Part shown: one piece after another, positions 14,225 to 50,418 of the stretch
How the letters are laid out: every line of letters starts with the position of its first letter
How positions within the stretch are numbered: the stretch's first letter is position 1
Source of the DNA: a bacterium
GTDB lineage: Bacteria; Patescibacteriota; Minisyncoccia; Phycocordibacterales; UBA9973
Direction of reading: 5' to 3'
NCBI GenBank assembly: GCA_037200905.1
Contig: JBBCGN010000006.1
Coordinates: 1-50,418 of the forward strand
Length of the DNA stretch: 50,418 bases
The notes under the pieces: model-generated
Seen by the model: the letters and a program-made list of their open reading frames with translations, nothing else
The model's database searches: none
What the model was told of the DNA's origin: nothing
Position numbers and translations under genes: made by a program

Positions 14225-14266
14225 GGTGAAATGAGCTTGTATTCCAAGGCTGAAAGAGCATATTGA
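14225..14266 (+). repeat. Distal fragment of the tRNA-Glu-linked att-like repeat (copy G')
   Basis: CAAGGCTGAAAGAG[C/T]ATATTGACTTTT shared with 15013-15039. Reads GEMSLYSKAERAY*. Confidence 0.55.
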
Positions 14267-14333
14267 CTTTTATTTAAAATATGATATACTATATAACGTA
14301 ATCCCGATTTTTCACAATTAAATATATCGCCTC

Positions 14334-14933: not shown

Positions 14934-14981
14934 TCGCGAAATCCTTAAAGCCCCATCCAGATATGGGGCTTTTTTATTTTT

Positions 14982-15034
14982 GTGACCCGTCGCAAGGGAA
15001 TATGCCGAAATACAAGGCTGAAAGAGTATATTGA
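14982..15034 (+). repeat. Internally deleted att-like repeat (copy G)
   Basis: GTGACCC core then AGGGAATATG. Reads GNMPKYKAERVY*, with the TGA inside a TTGACT box. Confidence 0.65.
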
Positions 15035-15102
15035 CTTTTATAAATCAATATGCTATAATATACATAAGAAAACAATTTTTTGACAATCAAATACACACAA
15101 TC

Positions 15103-15682
15103 ATGAAAATCAGCACTTTCTTTTTCGGAACTGCAATCATCGTTTTTTCTTCTTTTATCGCTTCATGCGGAGACTCTGAAGCCACAATGGCCATGCGCGC
15201 CAAACAGATTGCGGAGGACAGCATCGCGAAAGCGGCCGCAGCCCTTGCGCAAGCCAAAGCTGACAGCGCCGCCAAAGCCGAAGCTGCGATTACGGAATTG
15301 GTACCTGAAACTATTTCTGTTACAGAAGTAACAAGTACGAAATCCTCCAAAGAAGAGTTCAATAACGAAGGCTTGGCGGAAGTTAAAGCATCTTTCGGCA
15401 TTCACATCATTGCCGCAGGCAAAGCCTATGACGTGCAGGTAGAAAATGAAGACATGAATCACGAAGGCGGTAGCATTGAGAAATACGAAGACATGGACAA
15501 GCCCATCGCAGAAACTCACAAGCTCCGCGCCGGACATCCTTTCCAAGAATGTCACGAACTTTATCCTGTCAATCAACGGCAAGAACGAAGTTAAATCCTT
15601 TATTATGAAGGAAGAGATGAGCGGTGAAGCGGGAAAAGTGGGCACATACAAGCCCGCCGTAGTGATATGGAAAGCCCGCTGA
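15103..15682 (+). CDS. Putative lipoprotein, frameshifted near 15535
   Basis: Signal peptide with IASC lipobox and Ala-rich linker. Confidence 0.65.
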
Positions 15683-15724
15683 TGCGCCGAGAGAATTTTG
15701 GTTAGTAATAAAATCCCACGTGGT

Positions 15725-15755
15725 AGCCGATCAGAATATTCTGATCGGCTTTTTT
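15725..15755 (+). terminator. Intrinsic terminator, perfect 26-bp palindrome
   Basis: AGCCGATCAGAATATTCTGATCGGCT plus T-run. Confidence 0.75.
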
Positions 15756-15843
15756 ATTCGGCATACGGGAATATTATTGACTTTTACTACATAGTATGAT
15801 ACTATGTATGCGAAATAATCTTTTTAAACTTAAACCCTAGAAC

Positions 15844-16372
15844 ATGATACACGGTATTTCGACAGGCAGGCCCGGAGCCACGCGCTTCAGCCTTCGCGGC
15901 ACGGTGCTTAAGCACGTCACCCACACGACCGGCTGGTGGATATTCAAAGAAACATTTTACGGCATCCAGATCCAGCTCGATGAAAAACTGTAAAGCTGTG
16001 CGAAAAGCAATTCGGTAAGATTTACAATGTCGACGGATTTGAGGCCTCTATAGCGGGTGTCGTCAGTGTATTTTTTCCGCAAGAGGATATTGAAGACAAA
16101 GGCTTTGCGCCGGAACCAATGTCGGTATCACTTTTGCGAAAAGCGGACCGCTTGAGCAGTTCTTTAAAGGATCAGAGATGGTGATGGTAGTAGATGTGGT
16201 AAAGATTAAAGACGGCGTTCGCCTTGAAAACGAGCCGCTCCTATCCAGCTTTCTCTCTTATGATCGGCCGCACCAGATTTTGACAACAGGACTAAATTCC
16301 TGTTGTTTTTCTATTTGTGATCCTAGCGGTGCAGTATTGGAATACTGTAGTAGGGAATATAAGGGGATTTAA
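15844..16372 (+). CDS. Hypothetical protein in fragments, running into repeat copy A
   Basis: TTGACT promoter at about 15777, MIHGISTG.. start, open pieces in several frames up to 16372. Confidence 0.35.
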
Positions 16373-16379
16373 GATATAG
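16317..16379 (+). repeat. tRNA-Glu-linked att-like repeat (copy A)
   Basis: GTGATCCTAGCGGTGCAGTATTGGAATACTGTAGTAGGGAATAT. Confidence 0.85.
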
Positions 16380-16437
16380 AAAAATAAAAAACTCGTCAAA
16401 TTTGACGAGCTTTTAGTCTTAGATACTTCTTTAGAAA

Positions 16438-16785
16438 TTATTTTCGTTTCTTAGCATCAATAGAAAAACGATATAATCCGTAGAGACGAAGCATGGGCAA
16501 TATACCATCTTGAGTTGGTTCTTTGGAAACCAGCATAACCTGTTTGTCTTTTAGGTTGTTTGCTATTTTCCATTTTTTGAAAAACTTATTCGCCTCACGC
16601 CAAAGATAACCTAGTTCTTTTTTAGTTATCTTATTTCGATCAACTGTGATTGTCGCCTTGCGATCAATAACTGTAACGCTTCCGTGCAAATTAAAATTGT
16701 TATCTGCAACGGAGAAAGAAAAATTTGCTTCCGTATTAGAGGGAAGTAGATAACGGAATAATCCGTCTTTTACTGTCTGTATCAT
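16438..16785 (-). CDS. Hypothetical protein (cassette gene)
   Basis: Intact 115-aa AT-rich ORF between copies A and B, with own TTGACA promoter and terminator. Confidence 0.65.
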   Translation of the reverse strand: MIQTVKDGLFRYLLPSNTEANFSFSVADNNFNLHGSVTVIDRKATITVDRNKITKKELGYLWREANKFFKKWKIANNLKDKQVMLVSKEPTQDGILPMLRLYGLYRFSIDAKKRK

Positions 16786-16858
16786 TTGAGCTTATTTTTT
16801 TGTTGAAGAATTTGATGTTCACCTTTAAAGTAGCACGAAATAAATTGTTTGTCAATTT

Positions 16859-16933
16859 GTGATCCTAACGGTGCTGAATTGGAATACTGTAGTAGGGAAT
16901 ATGTTTAAATGCAAGATTGAAACAAGCTATTGA
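16859..16933 (+). repeat. tRNA-Glu-linked att-like repeat (copy B)
   Basis: GTGATCCTAACGGTGCTGAATTGGAATACTGTAGTAGGGAATATGTTTAAA...TATTGA. Confidence 0.85.
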
Positions 16934-16996
16934 CTTTTCATATAAAATATGCTTTACTATATAAGTAAACAAGTTCTAAAACAAATCAATACAAAT

Positions 16997-17293
16997 ATGG
17001 AAAAAGAACCGTTTGAAGAAAGAATGGTCCGGGTCCAGTGGCCCGAAACGTTTATCGGAAGATGGGTGGCAACCACCCTCTACGGCACTCACATGGAAGC
17101 AGATGTCGTCATTGCAGAGAGTCCTTCCGGCGTCATGTGTTTCGAAAGCAAAGATCACGGCCTGGCCTATTATGAGACGAAAGAGGTAAAGTTAATGGAG
17201 ATAAAAAAAGATTATCCGCGGCTTTACATAAGAGTCTTTGTGTGTGGAAGTACGGAGGAGGAGTTGAAAGAGCGGAAACTCAAGACGGCATGA
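16997..17293 (+). CDS. Hypothetical protein (cassette gene)
   Basis: Intact ORF after a TTGACT promoter, with terminator AACCATCCC-aca-AGGGATGGTT at about 17315. Confidence 0.65.
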   Translation: MEKEPFEERMVRVQWPETFIGRWVATTLYGTHMEADVVIAESPSGVMCFESKDHGLAYYETKEVKLMEIKKDYPRLYIRVFVCGSTEEELKERKLKTA

Positions 17294-17436
17294 CATGATT
17301 GCTGTCTGCAGTGAACCATCCCACAAGGGATGGTTTTTTATTTTGTCCTGAGATAAGCATTTATTACCTGACCGGTCAGAATATTCTGGCCGGTTTTTGA
17401 TTTTTCCGGAAAAAATGCTATTATCATCATGTTTTT

Positions 17437-17512
17437 GGCCCTTATCGTCTAACGGTTAGGACACCGCCTTCTCAAGGCAGTAATCAGAGTTCGATTCTCT
17501 GTAGGGTCACCA
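17437..17512 (+). tRNA. tRNA-Glu(CTC)
   Basis: Cloverleaf, anticodon loop TT-CTC-AA, GTTCGATTC T-arm, encoded CCA. One extra T in the acceptor 5' strand. Confidence 0.92.
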
Positions 17513-17599
17513 TTTAGAGAGCGCTCGAGAAGCGTCAAGATAATATTCAGTAAGTCTGTATACTACGAATTTAACTGAAAAGAGATATAATTTGAAGAT

Positions 17600-18315
17600 A
17601 TGGAAAAATCACCCGAAGAGACAAAAAGGATTGAGGCCTCGATGGAATTTGTCGAAAAATACTACACCGACGACATTGTCGAGAGAGCGAGTCCTGAAAG
17701 CGTGTGGGCAGCGCAGTGGGCGACCTATGTAGACGAAAATCCGTGCTTGATGTGGCATGCGGCCCGCAATTCTATGATGACGCATTGGCATTTGCTCAAA
17801 TTCCGAAAAAGTTCGTAGGGGTAGACCTCAATGAGGCCAACATTAAATTTTTAAAAACCTCCTTACACCCCAATATCATTAAAGCCAAGACAGAGCTTGA
17901 AAGAAACGGGTCGCAAGTTGAATTGCTTGTACAAGACATTACGGCAAGGAAGCCTGAATTCGATAGACAGTTCGACTCGGTATTCGCATCAGGAATCATC
18001 GGCAATTTTGGCATTGCAGAAACTAAAGCAGTCTTACAAAACATCAATTCCTATCTCGCTCTTGGAGGCCAATTCGTCATGGTGAGTTGGGGAGATGATT
18101 ATCTGAGCAAAGAAAAGAGTGAGGAAAGAGAGGCATCTGGATGGTATCAAAAGCAAGAATTGAAGCCGGAAGATTATGCTCGCTTAATCAGCGAGGCCGG
18201 CTTTACAATAGAAAAGCAAGAAGTGCATGAGGTCGCGGATCCTAAAGAGTATGAATGGGGCTGCATATTCGGCTTTATAGCGAGGAAAACCGTAGATAAA
18301 GAATCTTCAAACTAA
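17600..18315 (+). CDS. Class I SAM-dependent methyltransferase, frameshifted
   Basis: SVLDVACG, VGVDLN, QDIT, FDSVFASG, LALGGQF. Confidence 0.85.
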
Positions 18316-18320
18316 TTACA

Positions 18321-18392
18321 CTAAACTATTTCCGCCTTAAATTTAAGCATATTCCCTATCAAATAGTTCCAATTCCGCACCGTTAGGCTCAC
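18321..18392 (-). repeat. tRNA-Glu-linked att-like repeat (copy C)
   Basis: Reverse strand GTGAGCCTAACGGTGCGGAATTGGAACTATTTGATAGGGAATATGCTTAAATTT. Confidence 0.85.
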
Positions 18393-18440
18393 TGATAGAA
18401 AAATAAAAAATCCCGCACAATTTGTACGAGATTTCATGGA

Positions 18441-18947
18441 TCAACATTTAATGCTTCTGACGCTCTCAAAAATAGAGTTCAGTTGTTCTGCTAATAAATC
18501 GAGCTCTTTTCTCTTTTGACTGCAATCTAGAATATCCTTTGGGTATTGGTCTATGTACTCTTGTATGAGCACAGTCATTCTTTCACAAAAAGGATTATAT
18601 CTTATGTACTGCATCAATTCAGAGGAACCAAATTCAGGAGAGGGATTGTTCTTGATACGAAATTTATCTTTAGAAATAAAAAGCACAGTTTGACCAAAGT
18701 CATTGATACTATAAGAACAATGTTTGATTCCCACCAATATGCCAAAGTCAATCAAGCTTTTTAGAAAAGTTCCTTTTTTATCATTAAGAACTTTTAAGAG
18801 GTCATTTCGTTTTGTTGTGATTGTTTCGAATAGTTTTCTTAACTCTCCATCTTTATCAGAGATAAGCTCTTGAATCTTCTCGATTTCATTTTGGGCGTTC
18901 GATAGATATTTTTCAGCATTCTCCAGACCATTAAAGATTTGTTTCAT
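18441..18947 (-). CDS. Hypothetical protein with coiled-coil N-terminus (cassette gene)
   Basis: Intact 168-aa ORF with own promoter and terminator between copies C and D. Confidence 0.65.
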   Translation of the reverse strand: MKQIFNGLENAEKYLSNAQNEIEKIQELISDKDGELRKLFETITTKRNDLLKVLNDKKGTFLKSLIDFGILVGIKHCSYSINDFGQTVLFISKDKFRIKNNPSPEFGSSELMQYIRYNPFCERMTVLIQEYIDQYPKDILDCSQKRKELDLLAEQLNSIFESVRSIKC

Positions 18948-19008
18948 ATTTACGATTTAAGTATTTGAAGAATTTATTTCTGTCCCTATAATATCATATT
19001 AATAAAAG

Positions 19009-19083
19009 TCAATAGGCTAATTCCTCTTTAAATTTAAACATATTCCCTACTATAAAGTTCCAATTCAGCACCGTTAGGGTCAC
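19009..19083 (-). repeat. tRNA-Glu-linked att-like repeat (copy D)
   Basis: Reverse strand GTGACCCTAACGGTGCTGAATTGGAACTTTATAGTAGGGAATATGTTTAAATTT. Core TAGGGTCAC is identical to the tRNA 3' end. Confidence 0.87.
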
Positions 19084-19266
19084 AAATCTTTTGAGAGAGC
19101 AAACTGCTTTGCTCTAGAAAAAATTTGTGAAGACGGAGGCATATGTTTGCAGTGGCAAACAAGCCGAGTCCGGGTCTGGAAAATTTATGAGCGACGGCGA
19201 GTAAATTATTGTGGATCACTGATAGAAAAATAAAACTCTGTAGGATTTCCTACAGAGTAAAAATAA

Positions 19267-19710
19267 CTAAGCCACTGCTGAACTAACTTCTCTAAAAGTA
19301 ATAGAAGTAAGATTCTTGAAAGGTACAATGAGGTAACTTTGAACATGGTTGTCTACTTCTTCTGAATCAATACCTATCATCTCGTCATTATCGAATTCTG
19401 TAATTACAGTATATTTTGCAGAATCTTCTATTGACGGAAGGATAAATAGAACGGAGCGCTCATCTACTGCATACTTTCTCTTCTTGCCTTCAGGGTCTGC
19501 AACGGCATACATATCAATAGCTTGCGCGATCTTGTACTCGTGTGTACCTGGTTTTCCCTTGAGCTCGTAACTGAATATTATGCTCACGACAAAGTTACTT
19601 CCTTTTCCAAAAAGTTCACTGATCTTGTCCATCCAAAATATCGCCAATTGCTCATTATCATTGGTATCTGTTGGCTTTTTAATGACAATTCCATTATTTT
19701 CAGTATTCAT
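19267..19710 (-). CDS. Hypothetical protein (cassette gene)
   Basis: Intact 147-aa acidic ORF with terminator CTCTGTAGG-attt-CCTACAGAG. Confidence 0.65.
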   Translation of the reverse strand: MNTENNGIVIKKPTDTNDNEQLAIFWMDKISELFGKGSNFVVSIIFSYELKGKPGTHEYKIAQAIDMYAVADPEGKKRKYAVDERSVLFILPSIEDSAKYTVITEFDNDEMIGIDSEEVDNHVQSYLIVPFKNLTSITFREVSSAVA

Positions 19711-19796
19711 TGTTAAGGTTTTATGTGAATGTGCAAATTTGTTTACTATTAGACTTTATAACATATTTATGAAAAATCAATAGCTTTTATGAAAAA

Positions 19797-19871
19797 TCAA
19801 TAGCTAACTCCTCTTTAAAATTTAAGCATATTCCCTACCAGATAGTTCCAATTTTGTATACAAAGGGTCAC
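19797..19871 (-). repeat. tRNA-Glu-linked att-like repeat (copy E)
   Basis: Reverse strand GTGACCCTTTGTATACAAAATTGGAACTATCTGGTAGGGAATATGCTTAAATTT. Confidence 0.8.
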
Positions 19872-19899
19872 CTTTAACAGCTCGCACGAGAAGCGTATT

Positions 19900-20346
19900 T
19901 TGGAACAAAAAGTAGTACTTATCATTGGATTGCCTGGATCAGGAAAAACCACCTACATTGAACAGCATCAAGACATGTTTCATAATTTTGTCGTCTGTGA
20001 CGATTATCACAAATCAGCGCTGCAAAAATCCCGAGCATTCAACGACAGCATTTATTACAATGGTGTGCGAACGGCTCTTCTATCAGGCAAGAGCGTTGTC
20101 ATGGCCGACATCGCCTGGTGTAAATTTGAGCGCTTGGACATAGTAACTAAGGGGCTCCAAGAGCTTTGTAAAGAACTGAAAATAAATCCACCGATAGAAT
20201 TTCTTTATTTTGAAAACAATCCAGAAGCATGCAAAAGAAATGCGGTACACCGCGGGAGAAAAGAACGAGTCGATCGGGAAATAGAGTTTATTGATAAAAC
20301 CAGCAACAATATCGCATTCCAAACGAGGCTATTTCCATACAAATAG
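19900..20346 (+). CDS. P-loop kinase (AAA_33/nucleotide-kinase-like)
   Basis: IIGLPGSGKTT, VVCDD, SVVMAD, CKRNAVHR lid-like motif. TTG start, 3' end uncertain. Confidence 0.75.
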   Translation: MEQKVVLIIGLPGSGKTTYIEQHQDMFHNFVVCDDYHKSALQKSRAFNDSIYYNGVRTALLSGKSVVMADIAWCKFERLDIVTKGLQELCKELKINPPIEFLYFENNPEACKRNAVHRGRKERVDREIEFIDKTSNNIAFQTRLFPYK

Positions 20347-20454
20347 TCGATGCACGACAAGGGTCGGAATGATATACTGGAAAGGCACTAATTAATATTT
20401 CTATTAAAAAAGCGTCCTTATAACAAGGACGCTGGTTTTTGGATTTTTAGACAG

Positions 20455-20670
20455 TTATGATATTTTTCGGTTTCTGTATGCCATTGCTGACATTTGTTGG
20501 TCATTTTCTATCCCGTCCCTGATGGTGCTGTCAAAATCAATACCGTCGCTCACGATGCCGGAGAACTTTTTGTTCCTGTTCGTCTGAGCGTGCTGATACA
20601 TTTTTTTGACCTTACCGGGAAGCTGTTGGGCTTTGGTCATCAGCTTTCTAGCGCTGTTTCTTAAATTCAT
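20455..20670 (-). CDS. Small hypothetical protein
   Basis: 71-aa ATG ORF followed by a hairpin at about 20410. Confidence 0.4.
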   Translation of the reverse strand: MNLRNSARKLMTKAQQLPGKVKKMYQHAQTNRNKKFSGIVSDGIDFDSTIRDGIENDQQMSAMAYRNRKIS

Positions 20671-20719: not shown

Positions 20720-21260
20720 AAGAATGCGGTACAAGGGAAGGGGTCAGAATCGGCCGGAAGATGCTATGGCGCGCTGCACTCCAGCAGAAGAACCGGATCG
20801 GTTATTCTGCACGGCTACAGCCAGCACCGGCTGGTTAACCTCCTTTTTGAGCCTTCGGAGCTCTTTTTTCTCCTTTCGGATCTGGATGTTCAGGTCTCTG
20901 CGGGTGTCGCCGCTCGCATTGCGGCAATAGAGTTTGAGCGATTCGAGCTCGTCTCTTTGTTCTGGATGTTCCTTAGATGTTGCTCTGCGGACATACGTTC
21001 GGGGGTTTTGATGTTAAGAAAAAAAGTTAGATGCAGTGTTCGCGGGGTCTTGCCCCTGCAGGCGTTTGAGCTTCGAGATCTCTTTCTGGATCTCTTTGCG
21101 CTTTGCCTTGTCTTTTACCTGTTTCAAACTCCATGTGGAGGTCGTGGCTTTCGCGAGCGCAATTCGTTGAGAGACAGCTGTCCTTCGGCGCTCTGGCCAG
21201 TCTGAAGCATAACTTCGGGTTTTCGTTAAAAGATTGCGTGGACGGATCAGGCCGCCATTG
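20720..21260 (-). CDS. Hypothetical Lys/Glu-rich protein in fragments
   Basis: Open coiled-coil-like pieces on the minus strand (KDKAKRKEIQKEISKLKR; IRKEKKELRRLKKE). Boundaries unclear. Confidence 0.3.
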
Positions 21261-24886: not shown

Positions 24887-25490
24887 ATGTATACGGTAAA
24901 AATATTAACCCGGCTGATCGAGCACCATCAGGCGCTCGCATACGGCCTGATATTTCTCGGGCCTGATCTTCGAAGGGGAGATCACGCTCATCTCGGCCGG
25001 CGTTGCTGTCGCATCTCGGCCGCGCTCAACCTGTGGGCGACGCTCGCCATCGCCGTGGCCGGAGGGCTGACAAAGACTTTCTCGGCTATTCGTTCGGGCA
25101 ATTCCTGCACCGCAAGTTCAACCGTACGAAATTCCTGGCCTTACGTGGAGAAGCGGCGTTGCTCTACGTGGTGCCGCGTGTTCGCCGAGAAGCCGTTCTG
25201 GTCCATATTCCTTTCCAAATTCATCACCGGCGTGAACTATCTCGTAGTCATCTTCGCGGGATACAAGAAGATAGCCTGGAAGGACGTACCTCCGGGCGGA
25301 AATCACTTCGACGATCATCTGGGCGCCGCTCCTCCTCGCCATCGGCTACTTCTTCAGCTTCGCCGCCATCCACCTGAGCAGGGAAATCGGCGCTTCTTGC
25401 TCACGGTCGCTTCATTTACTATAATCTTCCTCCTCGTCCGACAGGCTGATCGGGCTCTTCTACGAGCTCTCCGAGCATTACAAGATGGGG
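24887..25490 (+). CDS. dedA: DedA/VTT family membrane protein, frameshifted, 3' end abuts the valS break
   Basis: LIFEGEITLISAG, FLSKFITGVNY, AGYKKIAWK..IWAPLL. Confidence 0.75.
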
Positions 25491-27304
25491 AGGAATGCTC
25501 CATGACGAAGCGGGATGCGTTCCACATTTTGTTGGCGAATTTCGCGTAGCCGCGGATATCATTTTCGTCCAGCTTGAGATCGTTGCCCGGCGTGTTGCCG
25601 ATGATCATGGCCATGCGCAGGGCATCATTGCCGTACTTTTCGATGATAGAAAGAGGATCGATGGCTTTCTCGCCGAGCGATTTCGACATCTTCTTGCCGT
25701 CGGCGGTGCGGACCATGCCGTGCAGGTATACGTTCTTGAACGGCACTTCGCCTAAGAGATATTGCGACATCAGGATCATGCGGGCGATCCAGAAGAAAAG
25801 AATATCGTGTCCAGTTTCGATAATCGTCGTGGGGTGATAGGTTTCCAAGTCTTTTGTTTTCTCCGGCCAGCCGAGGGTGGAGAATGTCCACAGTCCGGAA
25901 GAGAACCACGTATCGAGCGTATCTTCATCCTGGGTCCAGCCTTCGCCTTCAGGCGCTTCTATGCCGCAATATGCTTCGCTTTCGTTTCCTTTCGCCTTGT
26001 ACCAGACCGGTATGCGGTGTCCGTACCAGATCTGGCGGGAGATGCACCAGTCGCGCAGATTCTCGATCCAGTGGAAATAGGTCTTTTCGAAATGCTCAGG
26101 CATGATGTTTATCTTCTTTTCCCGTACCGGCTCGAGCATCAATTCTTTGAGCGATTTATCGCCGCGCGCAGGAATTTTCTTGTTCACGTCCACGAACCAT
26201 TGCAGCATGATCTGCGGCTCGATGATGCCGCCGGTGCGCTCTGCCGTAGCCACGCGGTTCACGTAATTCTCATCGATAGAAACGAGTAGGCCTTTCTCTT
26301 TCAGTTTTTCCACGATCTTGTCCCGGGCCTCGGCGATCTTCATGCCGGCGAATTCGCCGGCGATAGGGAGGAGCTTGCCGTACTTGTCGATGATCTGCTC
26401 GCGGTCGAGCTTGTATTTCTCGGCCAGGGCGAAGTCTTCATGCGAGTGCCACGGCGTGATGGTCATGACGCCGGTGCCGAAGTCCATGTCGATCATCTCG
26501 TCCTTTATGATGGTGGCCTCTACGGGGCCGTTGATCCACTCCACGGTGATTTTCTGCCCGTGCTCATAATTCTTGTATCGCGCATCGTCGGGATGCATGA
26601 CCACGTATTTGTCGCCGAATTTCGTTTCCGGCCGTGCCGTGCCTATCTCGAACGGGCCGTATTTGAAGGTATAAAATTTGCCTTTGCGCTCCTCGTAGAC
26701 GAGCTCGTCGTCGGAGATGACGGTCTGGCCTTTCGGATCCCAGTTCACCATCCTGTTGCCGCGATAGATGAGCCCGTCGTCATACATGGTTTTGAACGCA
26801 GTCCGTACGGCAACAGTGCGTTTTTTCGTCGAGAGTAAAAGCTTCGCGGGACCAGTCGAGGCTCGCTCCCATTTTCTTCGCCTGGTTGACGATGGTGTCG
26901 TGCGAGTCCTGAGCAAACTTCTCGACGCGCTTCAGGAATTCCTCGCGGCCGAGGTCGTTCTTGCGCACCCCTTCTTTTTCCAGAAGCTTCTCGACTTTCG
27001 ACTGCGTGGCGATGGCGGCATGGTCGGTGCCGGGAATCCATAATGTTTTTTTGCCCTGCATGCGGGCATGGCGCACCATGATATCCTGGATGACGATCAT
27101 GAGGGCGTGGCCGGTATGCAGATTGCCGGTGACGTTCGGAGGAGGCAAGATTATCGAGAAATGCTCGGCATCGGCCTTCGTGACGCCCTTTTCGATGCAA
27201 GTATCAGGATTGAAGAATCCGCTCTCTTCCCAGAGCTTGTATATGCGCTCTTCGGTGTTTTTGGCATCGTAAGGCTTCAGAAACTTTTCGTCCATAGCCT
27301 CCAT
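25490..27304 (-). CDS. valS: Valyl-tRNA synthetase, truncated before the anticodon-binding domain
   Basis: PPPNVTGNLHTGHA, GTDHAAIATQ, DWCISRQIWYGHRIP, KMSKS. Homology stops at KMWNASRFVMEH. Confidence 0.93.
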
Positions 27305-27326: not shown

Positions 27327-28484
27327 CTACAGTTTGAGGTAGCCTTCGGCCTTGATGTTCGCGCCGCGGCCGACTTTGCCTTTCTTCTTGAGAAATTGCA
27401 TATATCCGGCCATGCCGATCATGAGGGAATTATCGGTGGCGAGGCCTGCACCAGGAAAAAGTACCTTTACGCCCTTGGCGGCTTTTTTTATTTCCGTCCG
27501 CAGATACTTGTTCGAGGCTACTCCGCCGGCCACGATGAGGGTCTTCGCATCGTATTTCTCAATGGCCTTTTTCGTCTTGTGCGCGAGCACCTCGACGGCG
27601 GCATTCTCGAATTCGAGGGCGATTTTCGCTTTCGTGCCGGTATCGAGCGTGCCGATCTTCTGGGTCAGGTACAGCACTGCTGTTTTCAGTCCGGAAAAAG
27701 AGAAATCAAAGTTCTTGGTGTACATCATCGGTCTTGGTAGCGAAAAGCTATGTCCTCGCGGGGGTCGCATAATTTTCTGCTGAAAATTTGCTCCTGCTCG
27801 GCCCGTCGGCCTGCGCAAGACCCCGCAATGACATATCTTTTCTCGCCCTATCTGCTAATTTCGATATTTCCGGTCCGCCGGGATATGGCAGGCCGAGCAT
27901 GCGGGCTACTTTATCAAAGGCTTCGCCGGCCGCATCGTCGAGCGTCTCGCCGAGAATCTTGTATTTCATCCAGTCCTTCACCAGTACGAGCTCGGTATGT
28001 CCGCCGGAGACGAGCAGCGACAGCACGGGGAATTTCATTTTCGGCACGGTGAACTTGCCGTTCTGCTTGCCGAAGACGGACAGGATATGGCCTTCCATAT
28101 GGTTCACGGGCACGAGCGGCACTTTCCATTTCTGGGCCAGTTCTTTGGCAAAGACGATACCGGTCCAGAGGGCCGGTTCGAGGCCGGGGCCGCTGGTGAC
28201 GGCGATCAGATCGACGGGCTTGTCTTTCTTGTCGAGCTTGGCCTTTTTCAAAGTCTTGGCGAGCAGTAACGGCAAGGCCTTGATATGCTCGCGCTTTGCG
28301 AGGGCGGGGAAGACTCCGCCGTATTCTTTGTGGATGTCTATCTGCGAAGTCAGGCTGTTCGCCAGCACGCGAAAAGACGCCAAAGGTCCATCTACGCCAT
28401 GGCGTAGATTCGGAATGCGCCGTGTGCTTCGACGATACTCACTCCTGTCTCGTCGCAAGATGTTTCGATGGCCAGTATGTTCAT
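27327..28484 (-). CDS. tsaD: tRNA t6A biosynthesis protein TsaD, frameshifted
   Basis: ILAIETSCDETG, GPGLEPAL, NHMEGH, SGGHT, DDAAGEAFDK, FSFSGLKT, TDNSLMI. Confidence 0.95.
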
Positions 28485-32845: not shown

Positions 32846-33042
32846 CCCGTTAGAAGCAGGTCGCGGTCAGGCCGTGACTGCTTGAAATTAAGGAATAATA
32901 TGTGCGACTGCGGCTTCTAATGGGATCCATGCTCTCAATTATAGCCGAAAAGGCCGGCAGGTACAGTTCATTGACTTTTACCCCACATGTGCTATGATAC
33001 TCGACGGTAAAATGATTTTGTACTTAAAAACCAAATTGAATT

Positions 33043-33357
33043 ATGCTGAAAAGACATCGCCAGACTGCAGAGCACATGATGAACATCTTCCAATTCCCGG
33101 GAGAAAGCGATCTCGAATACCGCAAAAGGGTATTCTTGCACGCGTATCCCTACGGCGACTTGTTCGCCGTAGAAGCCCTCTTTGCAGTCAACGATTGGAG
33201 AAATCTGTCCTCCGATGACAAGAGATTCATGGAGAAGGCGAAACAGACCTTTGACTCCGGCGGCATGATCGCGCTGCGGGCCCTCGTCGATTCCTTCGCC
33301 GAAGATCCCAGGCGATCGTACGCGCCACCGCATGAGAATGAGGCTGTGCGCGCATAA
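33043..33357 (+). CDS. Hypothetical protein
   Basis: Intact 104-aa ORF with promoter and palindromic terminator AAAACCCGGAACTAGTTCCGGGTTTT. Confidence 0.55.
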   Translation: MLKRHRQTAEHMMNIFQFPGESDLEYRKRVFLHAYPYGDLFAVEALFAVNDWRNLSSDDKRFMEKAKQTFDSGGMIALRALVDSFAEDPRRSYAPPHENEAVRA

Positions 33358-33559
33358 TGGCCGCACCAAAACCCGGAACTAGTTCCGGGTTTTTATTTTT
33401 GGACTAATCATCGAAGGAAGCCGCTATATATTGACAAATAACATAAACATGGCAAAATGGCTATGAAAAAAATTATCTTTGATCTTCAAAATCAACCTTG
33501 TTGAATTGCATGTTGACTTTTGTATATTAAAATGCACAATAAAGCGAAACTTATTTACA

Positions 33560-33910
33560 ATGAAAACAGAAAAAATACTTGAAGGTGCAATTCACCTTGA
33601 CAAGCTCATGGGCATTCAGGTTGCCGTCGTTCACCATCTAGGTACTGATGCGTTCAGCAGACCCCAAACAGGTTGCACGTATTATCAAGTCATCAATGAA
33701 TACGACCTTGGTAATTACGACGACATTGAAGATGGTGCGGAAGTGACCTTCAAAGTTGAAGAGCCGGGGATAAGCATCTACCGCTTCGGGGTCACGCAGA
33801 CTCGCTCTCAGTGCACCATTTTGACAATCAAGCGCAAAGGACAAATCATTGAAACTACCGACTACAGGTATGAAAAAGAGTACAGTAAACAAAAATCCGT
33901 GATTGTCTGA
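33560..33910 (+). CDS. Hypothetical protein (cassette gene)
   Basis: Intact ORF from MKTEKILEG, with TTGACT promoter and terminator. Confidence 0.6.
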   Translation: MKTEKILEGAIHLDKLMGIQVAVVHHLGTDAFSRPQTGCTYYQVINEYDLGNYDDIEDGAEVTFKVEEPGISIYRFGVTQTRSQCTILTIKRKGQIIETTDYRYEKEYSKQKSVIV

Positions 33911-34070
33911 TATTTATTAGTTTTTCAAAGCCGAACCGAAAGGACGGCTTTTTATTTTGTGAGCCTATGACCAGTAGAGACTTCTGGTCCCTTGCCCTAT
34001 AAAGCTATGCAAGACTTTGTCAGTGTATTATTTCGACCCTTCTCGGCTGCTCGGACCAGCTCTCTCATTG

Positions 34071-34149
34071 GTGAGCCTAGTGGTGCGGAATTGGAACTGG
34101 ATAGTAGGGGAAGAATATAAGGGGATTTACGATTACATTATACTATTGA
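34071..34149 (+). repeat. tRNA-Glu-linked att-like repeat (copy F)
   Basis: GTGAGCCTAGTGGTGCGGAATTGGAACTGGATAGTAGGG..AATATAAGGGGATTT...TATTGA. Confidence 0.8.
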
Positions 34150-34212
34150 CTTTTAATATATAATGTGATATTGTATATTTGAAATAAGCTTTTAAAACTA
34201 AAAATCAATAAA

Positions 34213-34554
34213 ATGGATAAAACAGATTTCGAATCAGAGAACTGGTTCATTACCCGCTACGATAAACATCACGGTGTAAGAATTAGTAAACGGGAAGATG
34301 ACAAAGTCATTTATGACATTGAATGCATGATAAAATACGGAATGTACGGTGTCACACCAACGAATGATACTCCAAAGATAGTACACGAATTACTATCAAT
34401 AACCGGAGTAAATCTTGTTGCTTATGATCCTCGTCCAGAGAAAGCCTGTGTTCGATTCATCAACGTTAACTCTTATTACAGAGAGAATGAGGTTCTCAAC
34501 CCTGCTAAGTTTATTTTGTCGAAATACAAAAACAGAGAACCCGTTCTTTATTGA
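34213..34554 (+). CDS. Hypothetical protein (cassette gene)
   Basis: Intact 113-aa AT-rich ORF after copy F and its promoter. Confidence 0.65.
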   Translation: MDKTDFESENWFITRYDKHHGVRISKREDDKVIYDIECMIKYGMYGVTPTNDTPKIVHELLSITGVNLVAYDPRPEKACVRFINVNSYYRENEVLNPAKFILSKYKNREPVLY

Positions 34555-34704
34555 TTAAGAATTTATAAATCCTTTGACCATAATGGTTGAAGGATTTTTT
34601 CTTATAGTAGCTCGAACCTTCTCGTACACCCGGTAAAGTTCGAATAAATTATTGACATAACTACAAAGTATGTTATACTGTACTTAAATTTAAAATAAAC
34701 AACA

Positions 34705-34995
34705 ATGCATCAAATCATTATTGTAGGCGCTGTAATCCTTGTAGGAATTCTCGCCATTTTGTTCTTCATGGTTTGGCTTCTATGGTTCAGAAGCTCTAAA
34801 GACTCTGTTTGGCCACAAATCACCAAATGTAATATCTGTGACAAGCAGGTATACGTGTGGCAGCTGCACGAACGCAGGAATATGGATATATCCATTTCAG
34901 GAGATATATTTCTGGGCAATATTTCCGGCTCAGCGATTGTTCATAAAAAATGTGAAGGTAGTCCGAAATCCAAAGTCACTGTAAACAGAGGTTAA
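34705..34995 (+). CDS. Small membrane-anchored protein with CxxC...HxxC motif
   Basis: N-terminal TM, KCNICDK, HKKCEG. Confidence 0.6.
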   Translation: MHQIIIVGAVILVGILAILFFMVWLLWFRSSKDSVWPQITKCNICDKQVYVWQLHERRNMDISISGDIFLGNISGSAIVHKKCEGSPKSKVTVNRG

Positions 34996-35106
34996 AAAAA
35001 CATCCGATGTCCGCTATATGTATATGGCGGACATTTTTTATTTGCTTCAATTATATCTCTTTTTCCAGATCTCGTAGCTATGCAAGCTTACCGAATTATT
35101 GCCTCA

Positions 35107-35154
35107 ACGCTACTCGAGCGCTCTCTAAAAGGTGAGGATTCAGCAGGTAGAACC
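35107..35154 (+). repeat. Copy of the tRNA-Glu(CTC) downstream flank plus a decayed tRNA 3' end
   Basis: 35107-35135 matches the reverse complement of 17507-17535 at 27/29 nt. Confidence 0.75.
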
Positions 35155-35239
35155 TTTCGATTCGTTGCCCTGCAAGGTTATTTCTAATAATTAGCGACTA
35201 ACATCCCGACCCTTCTCGTGAGTGTAAATTTTTGCTAGC

Positions 35240-35809
35240 TTAACAAAATTATTTCCTCGGCAATATTTTGAAAATTCATATTACTTGTATCAAAAATCGT
35301 ATGGGGTATAGGAATAATTTTCAGTAATTCGAGTAACTCGTCCTGTTGGCTAGAATAGTATCTAACGATTTCCTCTTGAGTATTTCCTTTTGTATTAACA
35401 TAATTATTCCACTCGTCATCTCTATGGGATTGAGCCAGAGAATTCTTTCTTCAAGTTTATTATTTGGTATCTCTAGGAAACAAATCTGTGCACTATTTTC
35501 CAATAACAAAGAAGCGCTTTCTGTGAAATCTTCGATATGTGCTCTAGTGCGCCAGATATGAGTAAGATAGAGACGGTCAAAAATAAGTATGCCTTTGCTC
35601 GAAGAAAGATATCTATTTAAAAGACCTGTAATATGGTCATTTGCTGTTACTGGATCAGTATTTTGAAGCAATGGCATTAGAGTTTCTTCCTCGCCGATAA
35701 ATGTGTAATCAAGTCCTCTTCGAGTGAGTATCTTTTCTAGTTCATTCTTCACGGAAGTTTTACCGCTAGTGGCGATGCCCTCAAGCATGATAATGCTAGT
35801 TTTCTTCAT
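35240..35809 (-). CDS. Thymidylate-kinase-like P-loop kinase, 3' end frameshifted
   Basis: IIMLEGIATSGKTS, LIFDR, ERIL. Confidence 0.65.
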
Positions 35810-35835
35810 AATATTCTAAAATAAAATCTTGTAAT

Positions 35836-36443
35836 TCAGTCGGGGAAGAGGACTATTCCTTTAAGATTTTCATGCGGTTCCCTTGTAACGTATGACTCAT
35901 CGTGAGATCCCCAAAGAACAGCAACTGTCGGTATTTTAGCACGGTCGGCTTCTCGAATATCGCCCAGCGTGTCGGTAACAAATAGCATGTCTTCTTTTTT
36001 TATCTGATACTTTTCTTCAATCATGTTAAATTTCTCAACTTTATTTCTTGAAATTTCTGCCGAGGCTACCAAATCAAACATATCTCGTATACCTGCTTTT
36101 TCCAAAAGCGGTAGTAGATTTCGCTCCATAGCAGAAGAATTGATGGTCAAAATGTAATCCTTTGCTTGAGGAATTTTAGTAATTCAAACATTCCGTCATA
36201 CATTCCGACTTCTAATTTTTGTTGTGAGTATGCCAGTTTTCTTGATTCTTTTTCTTCCTCTGTCCGAATAACGGCAGTATTGTTGAGTTTGAACTTCCGT
36301 ATTTCTTCATGGAAGTTCCCGGCCAATAACTCTTTGTGATGGCTTCTTGTCAGATAAGGATAATCTTCTAGAAAAGCATTCTCAGCAATTGTTACAGAGT
36401 CAAAGAGAACCCCGTCCATATCGAAGATGATCAATTTTTTCAT
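35836..36443 (-). CDS. HAD-superfamily hydrolase, frameshifted
   Basis: IIFDMDGVLFDS, LTINS, FVTDTLGDI, AVLWG. Confidence 0.85.
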
Positions 36444-36497
36444 ATATCTGATTATATCAGAAGAGTCTATTTCTGAGTTTCTCGTGCGCGCTGCTGT

Positions 36498-36572
36498 TGG
36501 TGACCCTACAGGGAATCGAACCCTGATTACCGCCTTGAAAAGGCGATGTCCTAACCGTTAGACGATAGGGCC
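36498..36572 (-). tRNA. tRNA-Glu(TTC)
   Basis: Cloverleaf, anticodon loop TT-TTC-AA, encoded CCA. Nearly identical to 17437..17512. Confidence 0.95.
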
Positions 36573-36809
36573 ATGTAAAACTAAAGCAGAAATATAATAG
36601 CATTTTTGGGCCAAATTGCAAAAATAAAACGCCTCCTTTATAGGAAGCGTGTAATCCTTGCTGACCCCTGCATCAATGCGGATGCAGGGTATTTCGCAGG
36701 GAATCGATGTTCATGTAGTCTATCTCTACCACTTCTCCCCGGTATACATGCAGCCTTTTTTCTCTGACTAGCAGGGAATCGCCCGGCAGGTCGAGGGCGT
36801 ACCAGGTGG

Positions 36810-41329: not shown

Positions 41330-42301
41330 TTATTTGGTATGTATGGCGAGATAGATATCTTCGAGAGCGCGTACGGCGTCGCCGGCAGCGATGTTGTTCT
41401 GGTGATAGAGCACGGTAGTGCAATCGCCCGCGGCCCCAGATGCCCGGAGTCTCGGTCTTCTGCGTGACAGGGTCGATCTTGATGCGGCCCGTAGTCGTCG
41501 AGCGCCACCACTTCTTTGGCAAAGTCTGTGTTCGGGATCTGGCCGATCTCTACGAAGACGCCGGAGACTTTCAATTCATGCGTTTCGCCGGTGGTCTTGT
41601 CCTTGTAGGTGAGGCCTTCCACCATCTTGTCGCCTTTGACTTCAAGGATGTCGGCGTTTCAAGATGGCTTTCATTTTCGGATTCTTCAGGACCTTGTCGA
41701 CGGTGATCTCATCGGCCTTGTTGAAAGAGTCGCTCCTGTGGATGAGGGTGACGGAATTGCAGTAGGCGAGGAGCTGGGCCGCGGTCTCGAATCCGGCATT
41801 GCCGCCGCCGGCGACCACTACGTCCATGCCGGAAAAGAGCGGACCGTCGCACGAAGCGCAATAGGTCAGACCTTTGTGCTCAAGCTTGTCGGCGCCTACG
41901 GCTTCGAGCTTGCGGCGTCCGGAACCGGAGGCGATGAGTATGGTCTTGGTGGTGAAAGTGTCGCCTGATTCGGTGGTGACTTGGAAGCGGTCGCCCTGTT
42001 TGGAAATGTTTGCCACTTTCTCGCCGTCTTTGGCCATGAGCGTCGAGCCCATGTCTTCGGATTCTTTTGCGTTCTCGGTGCCGATAGCGTTCGCCAGGAC
42101 GTGCTTCTTCAGGTTCTCGGCCAGGTCGTGGCCGGAGATGGATGTGCTGCCGATCCAGTTATAGATAGTCTCCGAAACGATAGACTGTCCGCCCCATTCG
42201 CCGGTGAGCAAAAGGGTATTCAGGCGCTTGCGCGCGGCGTATACGGCCGCAGAAGCGCCTGCTGGACCGCCGCCTATAATGATCAGATCATATGTATTCA
42301 T
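41330..42301 (-). CDS. trxB: Thioredoxin-disulfide reductase, frameshifted
   Basis: [21 protein letters not shown] redox motif, GGGNAG, GVFVEIG, AAGD. Confidence 0.88.
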
Positions 42302-42359
42302 GGGTATAGTATAGCACAACGCAAAAGTGGCCATTATGGCCACTTTTTTGCTTGTATGA

Positions 42360-43547
42360 TTAATTCTTCTTTCTGCGGAGAAAGGCCGGAACAGCGCTCC
42401 AGTCGTCGTTGTCGTCTTCGATGATGATCTCTTCCTCTTTCTTCTCGGGCTTCTTGAAGAAATCATTGTTGCTCGAGCCCATGTTCGACTGGATGCTGTT
42501 GTGGATCTCTTTCTTCGCCACTGCGGCATTCTCTTCCTTGACTTTCTCGCCGGTCGGAGGGCCCGCGAAGAGGCTCTTCCTCGGCATGTCGGCAGGGAAG
42601 CTCGTGGCGATGACGGTGACCTTGAGCTCGCCCTTCTTGAGCTTCTCGTCGCGGATGGTGCCGAAGATGACCTTGGCGTCCTTGTCGATGGATTCGGTGA
42701 TGATCTTCGCCGCTTCCTGGATCTCGTGGATGGTGACGTCCTCGCCGCCGGAGATGGCGAAGAGCACGCCCCTTGGCGCCGTTGATGGAGACCTCGAGGA
42801 GCGGGGGAATTGATGGCCTGGAGAGCGGCCTGTTCCGCGCGCTTCTCGCCGGAGGCCGAGCCGATGCCCATGAGGGCAGAGCCGGCGTTCGCCATGACGG
42901 CGCGGATGTCCGCGAAGTCGACGTTGATGATGCCGGGAGTGGTGATGAGGTCGGAGATGCCCTCGACTGCCTGGCGGAGGACGTTGTCGCACATGGCGAA
43001 CGCTTCCTTGAAGTTGGTGTTCTTATCGGCGAGCTGGAGGAGCTTGTCGTTCGGGATGACGATGATGGCGTCCACTTCTTTCGCCAGGTCTTCGAGTCCC
43101 TTTTCCGCGAGCTTCATGCGGTGCGCGCCTTCGAAGAAGAACGGCTTGGTGACCACGCCGACAGTGAGTATGCCCTGCTCCTTTGCGGCGCGCGCCACGA
43201 TCGGCGCGGCTCCCGTGCCCGTGCCGCCGCCCATGCCGCAGGCGATGAAGATCATGTCAGCGCCCTTGATGACATCCTGGATCTCCGACTTCGTCTCTTC
43301 GGCCGCCTTCTTGCCGACTTCCGGATCCATGCCGGCGCCGAGGCCCTTGGTGAGGGTTCTTGCCGATGTGGATCTTTTTCTCTGCCAGGGAGTTGTGCAG
43401 GTCCTGGGTATCGGTGTTCATGCTGATGAATGTCACGCCCTTGACCTTGCTATTGATCATGTGGTTGACTGCGTTCTTTCCGGAACCGCCGACCCCGATG
43501 ACCACGATGCGAGCGAAGCTTTCGATTTCTGGGTTTACTTTAGGCAT
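42360..43547 (-). CDS. ftsZ: Cell division protein FtsZ, frameshifted
   Basis: [17 protein letters not shown] tubulin motif, INVDFAD, acidic linker and PAFLRR tail. Confidence 0.97.
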
Positions 43548-45867: not shown

Positions 45868-47337
45868 ATGTCAGCAATCGACGAAATCAGGAGACGCTCG
45901 TCTCGCGAAGCTCAAGATTCTTCAGGGAGAGAAGGCATTGACCCGTATCCGGCTGATTCAAAGCGCGAGATAAGGCTCGCCGATGCCGCATCTCAATTCG
46001 AAACTCTGGAAAAGGACGGTGCGGCCAAATGGATCGCGGGCCGCGTCATGTCCGTGCGGGGGGGCAGGGCGGCCTCGTTTTCATAACGCTCAACGACGGC
46101 ACGGGAACATTTCAGGGCTTGCTCAAGAAAGACACGATTGGCGATGAAAACGTTCGATCTTTTCAACGATGTCGTAGACATCGGCGACTTCATCGAGATC
46201 GACGGCACTTTTTTCACTACCAAGCGTGGAGAAAAAGACTCTCGAAGCGAAAGAATGGCGCATGCTTTCCCAAGTCGCTCCTGCCATTGCCGGACAAATG
46301 GGATGGCTTGCAGGACGTGGAAATGCGCTTCCGCAAGCGATAATCTCGATATATTGATGAGTCCGGAGATCAAGGAACTTTTCGAGAAAAAGGTGAAGTT
46401 TTGGCGCCACTACGAGAAACTTTTTGGAGAAGCATAATTTCATGGAGGTAGAAACTCCTACTATAGAAGTCACCACCGGTGGCGCAGAAGCCCGGCCGTT
46501 CAAGACGCATCACAATGATTTCGATATCGACGTATTCATGCGCATCTCCGTCGGCGAGCTGTGGCAGAAGCGCCTGATTGGCTGCCGGTTTCGAGAAGAC
46601 GTTCGAGATCGGCCGCGTGTACCGCAACGAAGGCTCGAGCCCCGACCATCTGCAGGAATTTACCAATATGGAATTCTATGCCGCATACATGAATCTCGAT
46701 GCCGGCAAGGCATTGGTGCGCAATCTTTTCATAACCATCGCCAAAGAAGTTTTCGGTACGACAAGCTTCGAGACTCGCGGGTACAAGTTTGATTTCGATA
46801 CGGTATGGCCGGAAATAGACTATGTAGAAGAGATCAAAAAAAACTACCGGCATCGACGTGCTCGAGGACTCCGAAGCTACCATGATGAAAAAGCTGACCG
46901 AACTCGGGGGTCACCTACGAAGGCAAGAACAAAGAGCGCCTCACCGACTCGCTCTGGAAATACTGCCGCAAGCAGATCGCCGGTCCGGCTTTCCTCGTGA
47001 ACCATCCGAAGCTCGTCGCGCCGCTCTCGAAATCGAATCCCGACGACCCGCGGCAGACGATCATGTTCCAAGTCTTGCTCGCAGGTTCTGAACTCGGCCG
47101 CGCGCATGCAGAACTCAATGATCCTATCGATCAGGCAGAACGATTCGAATCACAGCAGAAATTGATTGATCGGGGAGATGATGAAGCCATGATGTCAGAT
47201 ACTGAATACGTAGAGATGCTCGAACACGGCATGCCGCCGACATTCGGATTCGGATTCGGGGAAGATTGTTTGCAATATTGTCGGATAAACCGATCCGTGA
47301 TACGCAACTCTTTCCGCTGATGCGGCCTAAAGAATAA
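45868..47337 (+). CDS. lysS: Lysyl-tRNA synthetase class II, frameshifted
   Basis: IAGRVMS OB-fold, [29 protein letters not shown]. Confidence 0.95.
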
Positions 47338-47744: not shown

Positions 47745-48195
47745 ATGCTCATCGGCGAATATATCCATACAATTGATGCCAAGAACAGAATTTCCTTGCC
47801 GGTAAAGTTCCGACAGGAGATGGGCAAAAAAAATTATCATCACTCCGGGACTCGACCAAGTGCTTGTTCATTTTCACAAACAAAGAGTGGGCCAAGGTTT
47901 CCAAGCGCCTTTCCGATACCGATTCCGACCTTTCCTTTCTCGAGGCAGACAAGCGCAGCTTCAACCGTTTCATGTTCGGCCGCGCGGCCGAAGTGGAAGT
48001 GGACTCCATCGGCAGGATCCTGATCCCCGATTTCCTCAAGGACCGCATCGGATTGAAGGACAAGGCTGCGGTGGTGGGGTGGGCGTGGAGGATCGCGTGG
48101 AGATCTGGAACGACAAGGTCTGGTCGCAGTACAAGGAAACCGTGGAGAAGCAGGCTGATCAGCTCGCGGAGAAGCTCGCCCGCGGCAGAGCATAA
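47745..48195 (+). CDS. mraZ: Transcriptional regulator MraZ, frameshifted
   Basis: MLIGEYIHTIDAKNRISLP, DSIGRILIP, RVEIW. Confidence 0.95.
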
Positions 48196-48196
48196 A

Positions 48197-49116
48197 ATGG
48201 CCTCGCCTGTTAGGACAGCAACGGCCGAAGGACAGCGTTCACAAGAGCGTTCTTTTACAAGAAACCATCGGCAATCTCGGCATCACCGGCACGTCGGTGG
48301 TGGTCGACGGCACGTTTCGGCGGGGGCGGGCACAGCGCGGAGATCTGCAAGAAGCATCCGGGCGTGCGCATCATAGCCATCGACCAGGACAGCGGAGCTT
48401 GAAGCGGGCCGAGGACAAGTTCAAGGGCCTCGACTGCAAGGTAGAGTTCCATACCGCGAATTTCCGGGACATGGATACGGTGATCGGCGAGCCAGTCGGA
48501 TGCGGTCATCCTCGATCTCGGACTCTCGTCGGACCAATTGGAGAATTCTGGGAGAGGATTTTCTTTCATGAAGAATGAGCCGCTACTCATGACCATGAAA
48601 GAGAATCCTTCCTCGGAAGACCTTACGGCCAGGGACATCGTGAACACCTGGAGCGAGGAGAATCTCGCCGACATCATGTACGGATTCGGCGAGGAGCGAT
48701 TCTCGAGGCGCATAGCCAAAGGCATCGCAGGGGCGAGGAAGAAGAAGCCTATCGAGACGACGTTCGACCTGGTGAGCATCATCGAGCAATCGGTTCCGGC
48801 GCCGTACCGGCGGGGGGAAAGACCCAATTGCGCCACGAAGACCTTTCAGGCCATACGCATCGCCACCAATGACGAGCTCGGCGCGCTCTCCACGGGACTG
48901 CGCAAAGGGTTTACGGCCTTGCGGCCGGGAGGCAGGATGGCGGTGATCTCGTTCCACAGCCTGGAAGACAGGATCGTCAAGAAATTCTTCAAAGCCGAAG
49001 CGGACGAGGGTAGGGCGAAGCTCATCACCAAGAAGCCCATAGTATCGGAAAAATCAGAATTGACGGAGAATCCGAGAGCCCGGAGCGCGAAATTACGAAT
49101 CATAGAAAAATTATAA
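48197..49116 (+). CDS. rsmH: 16S rRNA m4C1402 methyltransferase, frameshifted
   Basis: HKSVLLQE, VVDGT.G.GGH, GFSF, TFQAIRIATNDEL, SFHSLEDR, NPRARSAKLR. Confidence 0.95.
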
Positions 49117-49137
49117 ATAAGTTTTGATACAAGAAAT

Positions 49138-49501
49138 ATGAAAGCAGCAGCATTAAAAATGAAGAGGTATGCGAGCAGCGTCAACATCGTCAAATAACAG
49201 CGATCTTTCCAGGCGCGCGCTGCATTTCATGCTGCTGTCTCTCGCCTGCTCGGCATCGCCTACGCCGTCATCCTCGCGAACATGGTCTTCAATATCGTCG
49301 AGCGCAAGGCTCTCGAGACGCAGGCCCGCTCGCTCGGCAACGACGTATCAGGCCATGGAACTCACGTATCTCGCCGAATCGAATAAGGTGGATCTCGCCC
49401 TCTCGTACTCCATGGGCTTCAAGGAGACCAAGGCCACGTTCGCAACTCGCAAGTCGCTGAAGTCATTGGGCAGCGTAAAAGTTTCGAACAATGAGCTCTA
49501 A
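49138..49501 (+). CDS. FtsL-like bitopic protein, frameshifted
   Basis: Lies between rsmH and ftsI, TM followed by a short coiled segment, ATGA-type overlap with ftsI. Confidence 0.55.
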
Positions 49502-50418
49502 GCTTTTCTCGAGAACTTCGGTACTGTCCCTCGGCGTCATCGTGTTCGCGCTCGTCCTCATCTCGAGGCTTTTTTGGCTGCAGGTGCTCCATTCGAGCGC
49601 TTATTCCGAGAAGAGCCGACCGCCAGTACGTCTACGCCGTCGTCGAACATTCTTCGAACGGGAGGCACCATGTTCTTCCAGAACAAGGACGACGGCCTCG
49701 TCTCCGCCGCCCTGCAGACGGCCGGATTCAAGATCGCCATCAATCCGACGGAGCTCGCCGACAAGGAATCCGCGTACGCGGGTATCAATGCCGTCGTACC
49801 GGTCGCCAAGGACGATTTCATGAACAAGGCCGCCAAGTCCACAGACCCGTACGAAGAGGTGGCCACGCATCTTTCGAAAGACGAAGCCGACGCCGTCACG
49901 GCCAAGAAGATTCCCGGCGTCTACATATACAAGGAGAAGTGGCGCTTCTATCCCGGCGAGAACCTGGCGTCGCAGTCGCTCGGGCTCTTGGGCTACAAGG
50001 GCGACAATGCTCGGCGGCCGCTACGGCCTCGAGCGCCAGTACGACGACGTGCTGGCGGAGAACGAGGACGATTCTTACGTGAACTTCTTCGCCCAAGTGT
50101 TTTCCAATATCAACAAGACGCTCTTCGAGAGCGGCAAGAAGAGCGGGGACGTGGTCACCACCATCGAGCCGACGGTGCAGAGCTTCCTCGAGAAATCTCT
50201 CGCGGGCGTCCGCGACAAATACAATACCGATTCCATCGGCGGCATCATCATGAATCCGAAGGACGGCTCGATCTACGCCCTCTCGGTGAAGCCCGATTTC
50301 GATCCGAACTGACGTCTCCAAGGTCAAGAACGTGGCCGTGTTCTCGAATCCGCTCGTCGAGAGAACGTCCTCGAGTTCGGCTCGGTGGTCAAGCCGCTCG
50401 TCATGGCCGCGGCGCTCG
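49491..50418 (+). CDS. ftsI: Penicillin-binding protein (FtsI/PBP2 type), N-terminal part, frameshifted
   Basis: RLFWLQV, RGTMFF, WRFYPG..LASQSLG, GRYGLERQYD, TTIEPTVQ, IIMNPKDG, and GSVVK (SxxK) at the very end. Confidence 0.93.

Follow-up and report, generated by a model that had tools for sequence, protein, structure and literature searches.

The contig analysed here seems to close on itself, its last bases running into its first within a single gene, and this raises the question of whether the implied 50.4-kb circle of core chromosomal genes is a DNA molecule. The window covers contig C6 in full (50,418 bp), one of six contigs (C1 to C6) in an assembly which totals 676,658 bp (about 677 kb) and has a completeness rating of 72%. 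The closest named relatives of this metagenome-assembled genome (MAG) are 'Candidatus Nomurabacteria'/Paceibacterota MAGs, and the organism is a Nomurabacteria-like member of the CPR. Its closest relative, a genome of the same genus referred to here as G006, served as the reference for synteny and tblastn searches, and the contig in that genome which matches the window is G006:C15. The GC content is approximately 51-52% in the genome under study, with GC3 values of up to 0.8 in core genes, and 32% in G006. ValS is about 82% identical between the two despite this gap, which represents a large compositional shift inside one GTDB genus. A sequence-only reading of the window had left the choice between an artefact, in the form of a premature circularisation or chimeric read, and a real excised circle. 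Our analysis points strongly to an artefact, although of a third and simpler kind, because other contigs of the assembly carry the same signature: the circle very probably results from the rotation of a linear contig and corresponds to no DNA molecule.

The end and the start of the window meet inside ftsI. The 5' part of this gene (49,491-50,418, plus strand) encodes the transmembrane helix, the dimerisation domain and the SVVK motif, carries around four frameshifts and was found by six-frame translation to end with ...VMAAAL and the first base of an Asp codon. The 3' part (1-787, plus strand) encodes the SLN and KTG motifs and the C-terminus, and its bases 1-612 form a 203-aa ORF fragment whose ATG is the start of the contig. 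This first ORF (1-609) matches the Pfam Transpeptidase profile from position 57 of 299 and hence starts in the middle of the domain. The last bases of the window encode ...NVLEFGSVVKPLVMAAAL together with one lone G at 50,418, while the first bases supply AT-GCG-GGG and then, past one extra base, VVTPSTTYTDNG. When the join was aligned to the FtsI of G006 (571 aa), AAALDAG followed by GVVTPSTTY in the window was found opposite AAAIDKGVVTANTTY in G006, with no residues lost or repeated. In tblastn, residues 1-309 of the G006 protein cover the stretch from 49,491 to base 8 of the window. The earlier observation that the contig end meets its start inside ftsI with neither gap nor overlap is thus confirmed residue by residue. 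The same is true of the order of the SxxK, SxN and KTG motifs, as SVVK lies before the join, and SLN and then KTG lie after it.

The sole irregularity at this join, apparent from the sequence and the alignment to G006 FtsI, is a GGGG run at positions 5-8 (plus strand) with one surplus base; the in-frame version would be GAT GCG GGc GTG GTC. A frame slip in this G-run had been recognised from the sequence alone, but the direction given for it was incorrect, since the run has one base too many and not one too few. The indel is unremarkable because ftsI carries approximately eight frame changes over about 1.7 kb, in line with the earlier argument that it fits the indel rate, and from this density we conclude that the assembly is a poorly polished long-read assembly. 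Frameshifts are dense in the window, at about one per 200 bp in ftsI (49,491 through the join to 787), and occur in dedA and valS as well. In C2, C4 and C5, full-length alignments to G006 were obtained for many genes, and C6 may be less well polished or have a lower coverage than the other contigs. At 41,645-43,417 (minus strand), FtsZ and a thioredoxin-reductase-like domain share one 591-aa stop-to-stop frame, which most likely reflects an indel that merges the frames of two neighbouring genes and not a fusion.

The genes on either side of ftsI were also examined. Directly upstream are mraZ, rsmH and ftsL (47,858-49,498, plus strand), which were located by translation and by tblastn of the G006:C15 ORFs at 70,075-71,801. 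Directly downstream is murF (819-1,958, plus strand), which matches G006:C15 73,487-74,803 with 57% identity. The same order is found in G006, where mraZ, rsmH and ftsL likewise precede ftsI and murF follows, and the native division and cell-wall cluster mraZ-rsmH-ftsL-ftsI-murF therefore runs intact across the window boundary.

Inside the window lies an artificial junction at 25,491-25,505, where valS and a dedA-family membrane protein gene abut tail to tail with zero spacer. The valS gene (25,492-27,295, minus strand) retains the first 607 of about 735 codons; homology to the 735-residue ValS of G006 stops at residue 607, at window positions 25,492-25,495. In Pfam, its tRNA-synt_1 domain is matched to position 413 of 414 and Anticodon_1 was not found. 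The missing 3' part (about 128 codons, covering nearly all of the anticodon-binding part) is absent from the whole assembly, and the prsW-like and Hsp20 genes which neighbour valS in G006 were not found in the assembly either. On the other side, the dedA gene (24,887-25,505, plus strand) is frameshifted but essentially complete. The G006 DedA protein matches it by tblastn in two HSPs (residues 1-130 and 130-201) which reach residue 201 of 207 at 25,496, and the stop codon is located at 25,503-25,505. Upstream of valS, the conserved neighbour tsaD (27,330-28,380, minus strand; Pfam TsaD) is retained.

A comparison of gene order with relatives, which the sequence-only reading had suggested, was carried out on 80 genome loci and 80 metagenome loci with relatives of valS (n=160). 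All but one of these loci (159) have a full-length ValS, and in the remaining locus the contig ends within the gene. Downstream of valS, a prsW-like gene is present in 124 loci, and tsaD lies upstream in 108, whereas dedA was not observed within 10 kb of valS in any of the 160. A native convergent dedA/valS pair was rejected on this count. No contig of the same species with an intact valS was found in the genome and metagenome collections, where the best identity was 87%. Because the missing ValS residues are absent, dedA and valS abut, and their adjacency is found in none of the 160 loci, the true discontinuity is at 25.49 kb and not at 50,418/1. The proposal that the breakpoint lies near 25,490, and that 50,418/1 is normal gene sequence, is therefore upheld: valS is cut and ftsI is continuous across the join, with the order of the ftsI cluster kept in G006.

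We considered whether the discontinuity could be the closure point of a real molecule, in which case a fraction of the CPR population would carry the valS-to-dedA segment either excised as a 50-kb circle or duplicated in tandem. The junction does have the head-to-tail topology expected of such a molecule, and as the 3' part of valS is absent from an assembly which is 72% complete, the parental flank is not directly demonstrable. The gene content argues otherwise. None of the 30 ORFs scanned against Pfam and none of the four tRNA genes (two tRNA-Glu, tRNA-Val and tRNA-Ser) revealed a rep, par, terminase, integrase, recombinase or packaging function, and the ORFs belong only to housekeeping or accessory metabolic families. 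These include mannose-6-P isomerase/cupin, an MFS transporter, a LuxR-type response regulator, a P-type ATPase, a methyltransferase, kinases, malic enzyme, FtsZ, a thioredoxin-reductase-like (TrxB-like) protein, glutamate dehydrogenase (GDH), a nucleotidyl transferase, UDG, TsaD and DinB. The housekeeping content that had been noted earlier, lacking rep, par, terminase and integrase genes, is accordingly corroborated, but the suggestion that the size reflects a phage headful is without support. Compared with what defines a circular replicon, the contig has no genes for replication, partition, packaging or integration, and its closure would truncate valS, a single-copy essential gene. There is also no repeat which links the two ends: a self-BLAST of C6 against the whole assembly gave just 56-111-bp matches, the other contigs share at most about 90 bp with C6, and none of the matches lies at the junction. 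An inverted-duplicate (fold-back) or repeat-mediated loop was rejected for the same reason. Finally, the junction is not specific to this segment, as equivalent midpoint breaks are present in C1, C2, C3 and C4, and obg, the continuation on the dedA side, sits at the break of C4. For a real molecule the midpoint position would be a coincidence, and the dedA-valS adjacency is absent from all relatives surveyed; we regard it as very improbable and the least likely of the explanations considered.

The window also contains two islands of 36-44% GC (14,000-20,500 and 33,000-36,600), which are located at the tRNA-Glu genes 17,437-17,512 and 36,498-36,572. The islands carry orphan ORFs, a methyltransferase and AAA-type kinases, and a G006 counterpart is absent in or near both of them, the first lying within a 2-22 kb insert and the second within an unmatched stretch at 32-41 kb.

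The decisive evidence comes from the other contigs of the assembly. In all six, base 1 is the ATG of a plus-strand ORF. The chance of this occurring is about (1/64)^6, and every contig must therefore have been re-started at a predicted gene. Furthermore, the end-to-start join is native in five of the six contigs (C1, C2, C4, C5 and C6), which indicates that the contigs were rotated and not trimmed. As an example, rseP is found at position 1 of C4 and its G006 neighbour at the end of C4, while in C5 and C2 the genes on either side of the join follow the G006 order. In C1 the join falls inside a 23S rRNA gene on the minus strand, where positions 1-1581 of the bacterial LSU model correspond to C1:1598..1 and positions 1564-2925 to C1:320031..318145. 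The start codon of C1 belongs to a spurious 63-aa ORF (192 bp) antisense to the 23S rRNA, and such an ORF is typical of an automatic gene caller. A 5S rRNA was observed in the same contig at about 317,354-317,461.

The second part of this signature is a break at or just past the midpoint (L/2), which was observed in five of the six contigs and cuts genes in four of them. The breaks were placed by synteny with G006, as midpoint ORFs judged by eye proved too noisy. In C6 (L/2 at 25,209) the break at 25,491-25,505, with valS cut at codon 607, lies 282-296 bp beyond the midpoint, within the span of the first ORF after de-rotation. In C4 (L/2 at 34,348) it lies at about 34,990-35,003 (approximately +642), where the PG-binding motif of a LamG/FN3 protein is interrupted and about 12 residues of obg are missing. 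In C3 (L/2 at 20,641) it lies at about 20,879-20,900 (approximately +238), where hisS ends at residue 214 of 435 and the remainder is absent from the genome. In C2 (L/2 at 46,264) the break at 46,365-46,419 (+101 to +155) comes past ligA and a tRNA, and an F420-ligase-like gene is without its first 26 residues. For C1 (L/2 at 160,015) a jump in synteny from rluB to another part of G006 places it at 160,011-160,777 (-4 to +762). After de-rotation, the midpoint falls inside the first ORF in C2, C3, C4 and C6. The likeliest break in C1, at about 160,778, is 762 bp off the midpoint and past the 192-bp first ORF, and the midpoint rule fits this contig only if it is taken as the nearest predicted gene within the rRNA operon. 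The midpoint region of C5 has no G006 homologue, and inspection of its ORFs gave no decisive gene truncation.

The edges of these breaks can be paired between contigs. The order in G006 is dedA, one ORF and obg, and in this assembly dedA is at the break of C6 and obg is exactly at the break of C4. Similarly, G006 has hisS, one ORF and a 286-aa gene in that order, and here hisS is at the break of C3 and the C-terminus of the 286-aa gene is at the break of C1. Because neighbours in G006 are found here at the breaks of separate contigs, the contigs are linear neighbours on one chromosome, and the junction at 25.49 kb consists of two original contig ends pasted together. When C6 is read from 25,492 to 50,418 and then from 1 to 25,491, it is collinear with 51.7-81.2 kb of G006:C15, with a C6-specific insert at approximately 2-22 kb.

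These pairings also bear on a false circularisation by the assembler, in which one or a few chimeric long reads, or an error in the assembly graph, joined dedA to valS and the resulting circular 50-kb contig was later rotated. The noise of the assembly, with about one indel per 200 bp in ftsI, suggests a low coverage at which chimeras may survive, and a clean tail-to-tail fusion lacking any repeat is what such a join would leave. A chimeric junction could fall anywhere, whereas the actual one is 282 bp from L/2 and within the span of the start gene, and four other contigs are broken at the same relative place, three of them with cut genes. Six false circles in a 677-kb genome, with edges that are neighbours in G006, are also far less economical than six linear contigs. 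We consider this explanation very unlikely, if slightly less so than a real molecule; neither a single chimeric read nor a single excised circle is sufficient, because the other contigs carry the same signature.

Rotation of linear contigs very probably accounts for these features, through a short series of steps. C6 would be a linear chromosomal contig of a noisy long-read MAG, and after assembly all contigs would have passed through a start-fixing step which assumes circular input. With no close match to dnaA, each contig would be rotated so that its forward strand begins with the Prodigal gene closest to its middle. C6 would thus have been opened at the start codon (ATG) of an ORF fragment within the frameshifted ftsI, leaving the window end and start natively contiguous, and the rotation would have concatenated the true ends of C6 at 25,491-25,505, namely the 3' end of dedA and valS broken at codon 607. 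The apparent 50.4-kb circle would then exist in the file only and no join at the level of reads or the assembler would be required. Reads spanning 25,491/25,492 are expected to be absent.

The behaviour of the contigs resembles the output of the fixstart step of Circlator. The full Circlator pipeline rotates just those contigs which it judges to be circular, and fixstart run as a separate task should rotate all the contigs given to it. In the present assembly dnaA is located at about 128.8-129.3 kb of C1 and not at the start of any contig. Circlator rearranges a contig so that a fully matched dnaA comes first on the forward strand, with PROmer hits of at least 80% identity kept (PMC4699355), and when there is no dnaA match it takes as the new start whichever predicted gene is closest to the contig middle (Hunt et al. 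2015, PMC4699355). The dnaA of this CPR organism presumably misses the 80%-identity match to the default dnaA set of Circlator. Like fixstart output, C6 begins at the forward-strand start codon of a Prodigal-type gene nearest the original middle, dnaA is ignored in the absence of a close match and the original ends adjoin near the new midpoint. The difference is that fixstart is meant for contigs proven to be circular, whereas here it would have been applied to linear fragments of one chromosome and so produced a false internal adjacency. Judging from this behaviour, Circlator or a program with the same rule was probably responsible. A reorienter which is sensitive to dnaA (dnaapler-like) is unlikely, as the dnaA at about 129 kb of C1 was left unused, and rotation to a random gene is also unlikely given that five breaks lie within 1% of L/2.

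The rotation may have been carried out by the depositor or by a later handler, and it could also have been added downstream of the public record by data handling, in which case the deposited contig would be linear and unrotated. That all six contigs are uniformly affected would suit a downstream step, but there is no sign of such processing and a published circularisation tool is known to follow the midpoint-gene rule (PMC4699355), and we therefore consider a downstream origin unlikely, though less remote than the two explanations weighed above. The outcome for the present finding is the same with either origin, as the circle is an artefact and no circular molecule is involved.

Two further kinds of record are comparable with C6. 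Circular phage and plasmid records which have been rotated or arbitrarily opened also show a seamless join of end and start inside an ordinary gene, as an effect of bookkeeping. These are truly complete circular or permuted genomes, whereas C6 is not closed and holds a second, non-native junction. Chimeric or misjoined MAG contigs share with C6 the fusion of two non-adjacent chromosomal loci with truncation of genes (valS here; hisS and obg in the sister contigs). In contrast to these, the fusion in C6 would stem from the concatenation of ends and not from reads or the assembler, and it recurs predictably just past L/2.

The biological relevance of the circle itself is nil, as there is no 50-kb circle. 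For users of the public MAG, at least five of the six contigs hold a false adjacency near their midpoint, and genes are truncated in four of them (valS, hisS, obg and others). Such adjacencies could pass for gene loss, pseudogenisation, fusion or rearrangement, and findings near the break coordinates of C1, C2, C3 and C4 need to be read with this in mind. An ATG at the start of every contig together with a synteny break at or just after L/2 forms a simple screen, which would also catch other linear assemblies that have passed through a start fixer for circular genomes. In addition, de-rotation yields hints for scaffolding, in which the dedA end of C6 is placed next to the obg end of C4 and the hisS end of C3 next to the break of C1.
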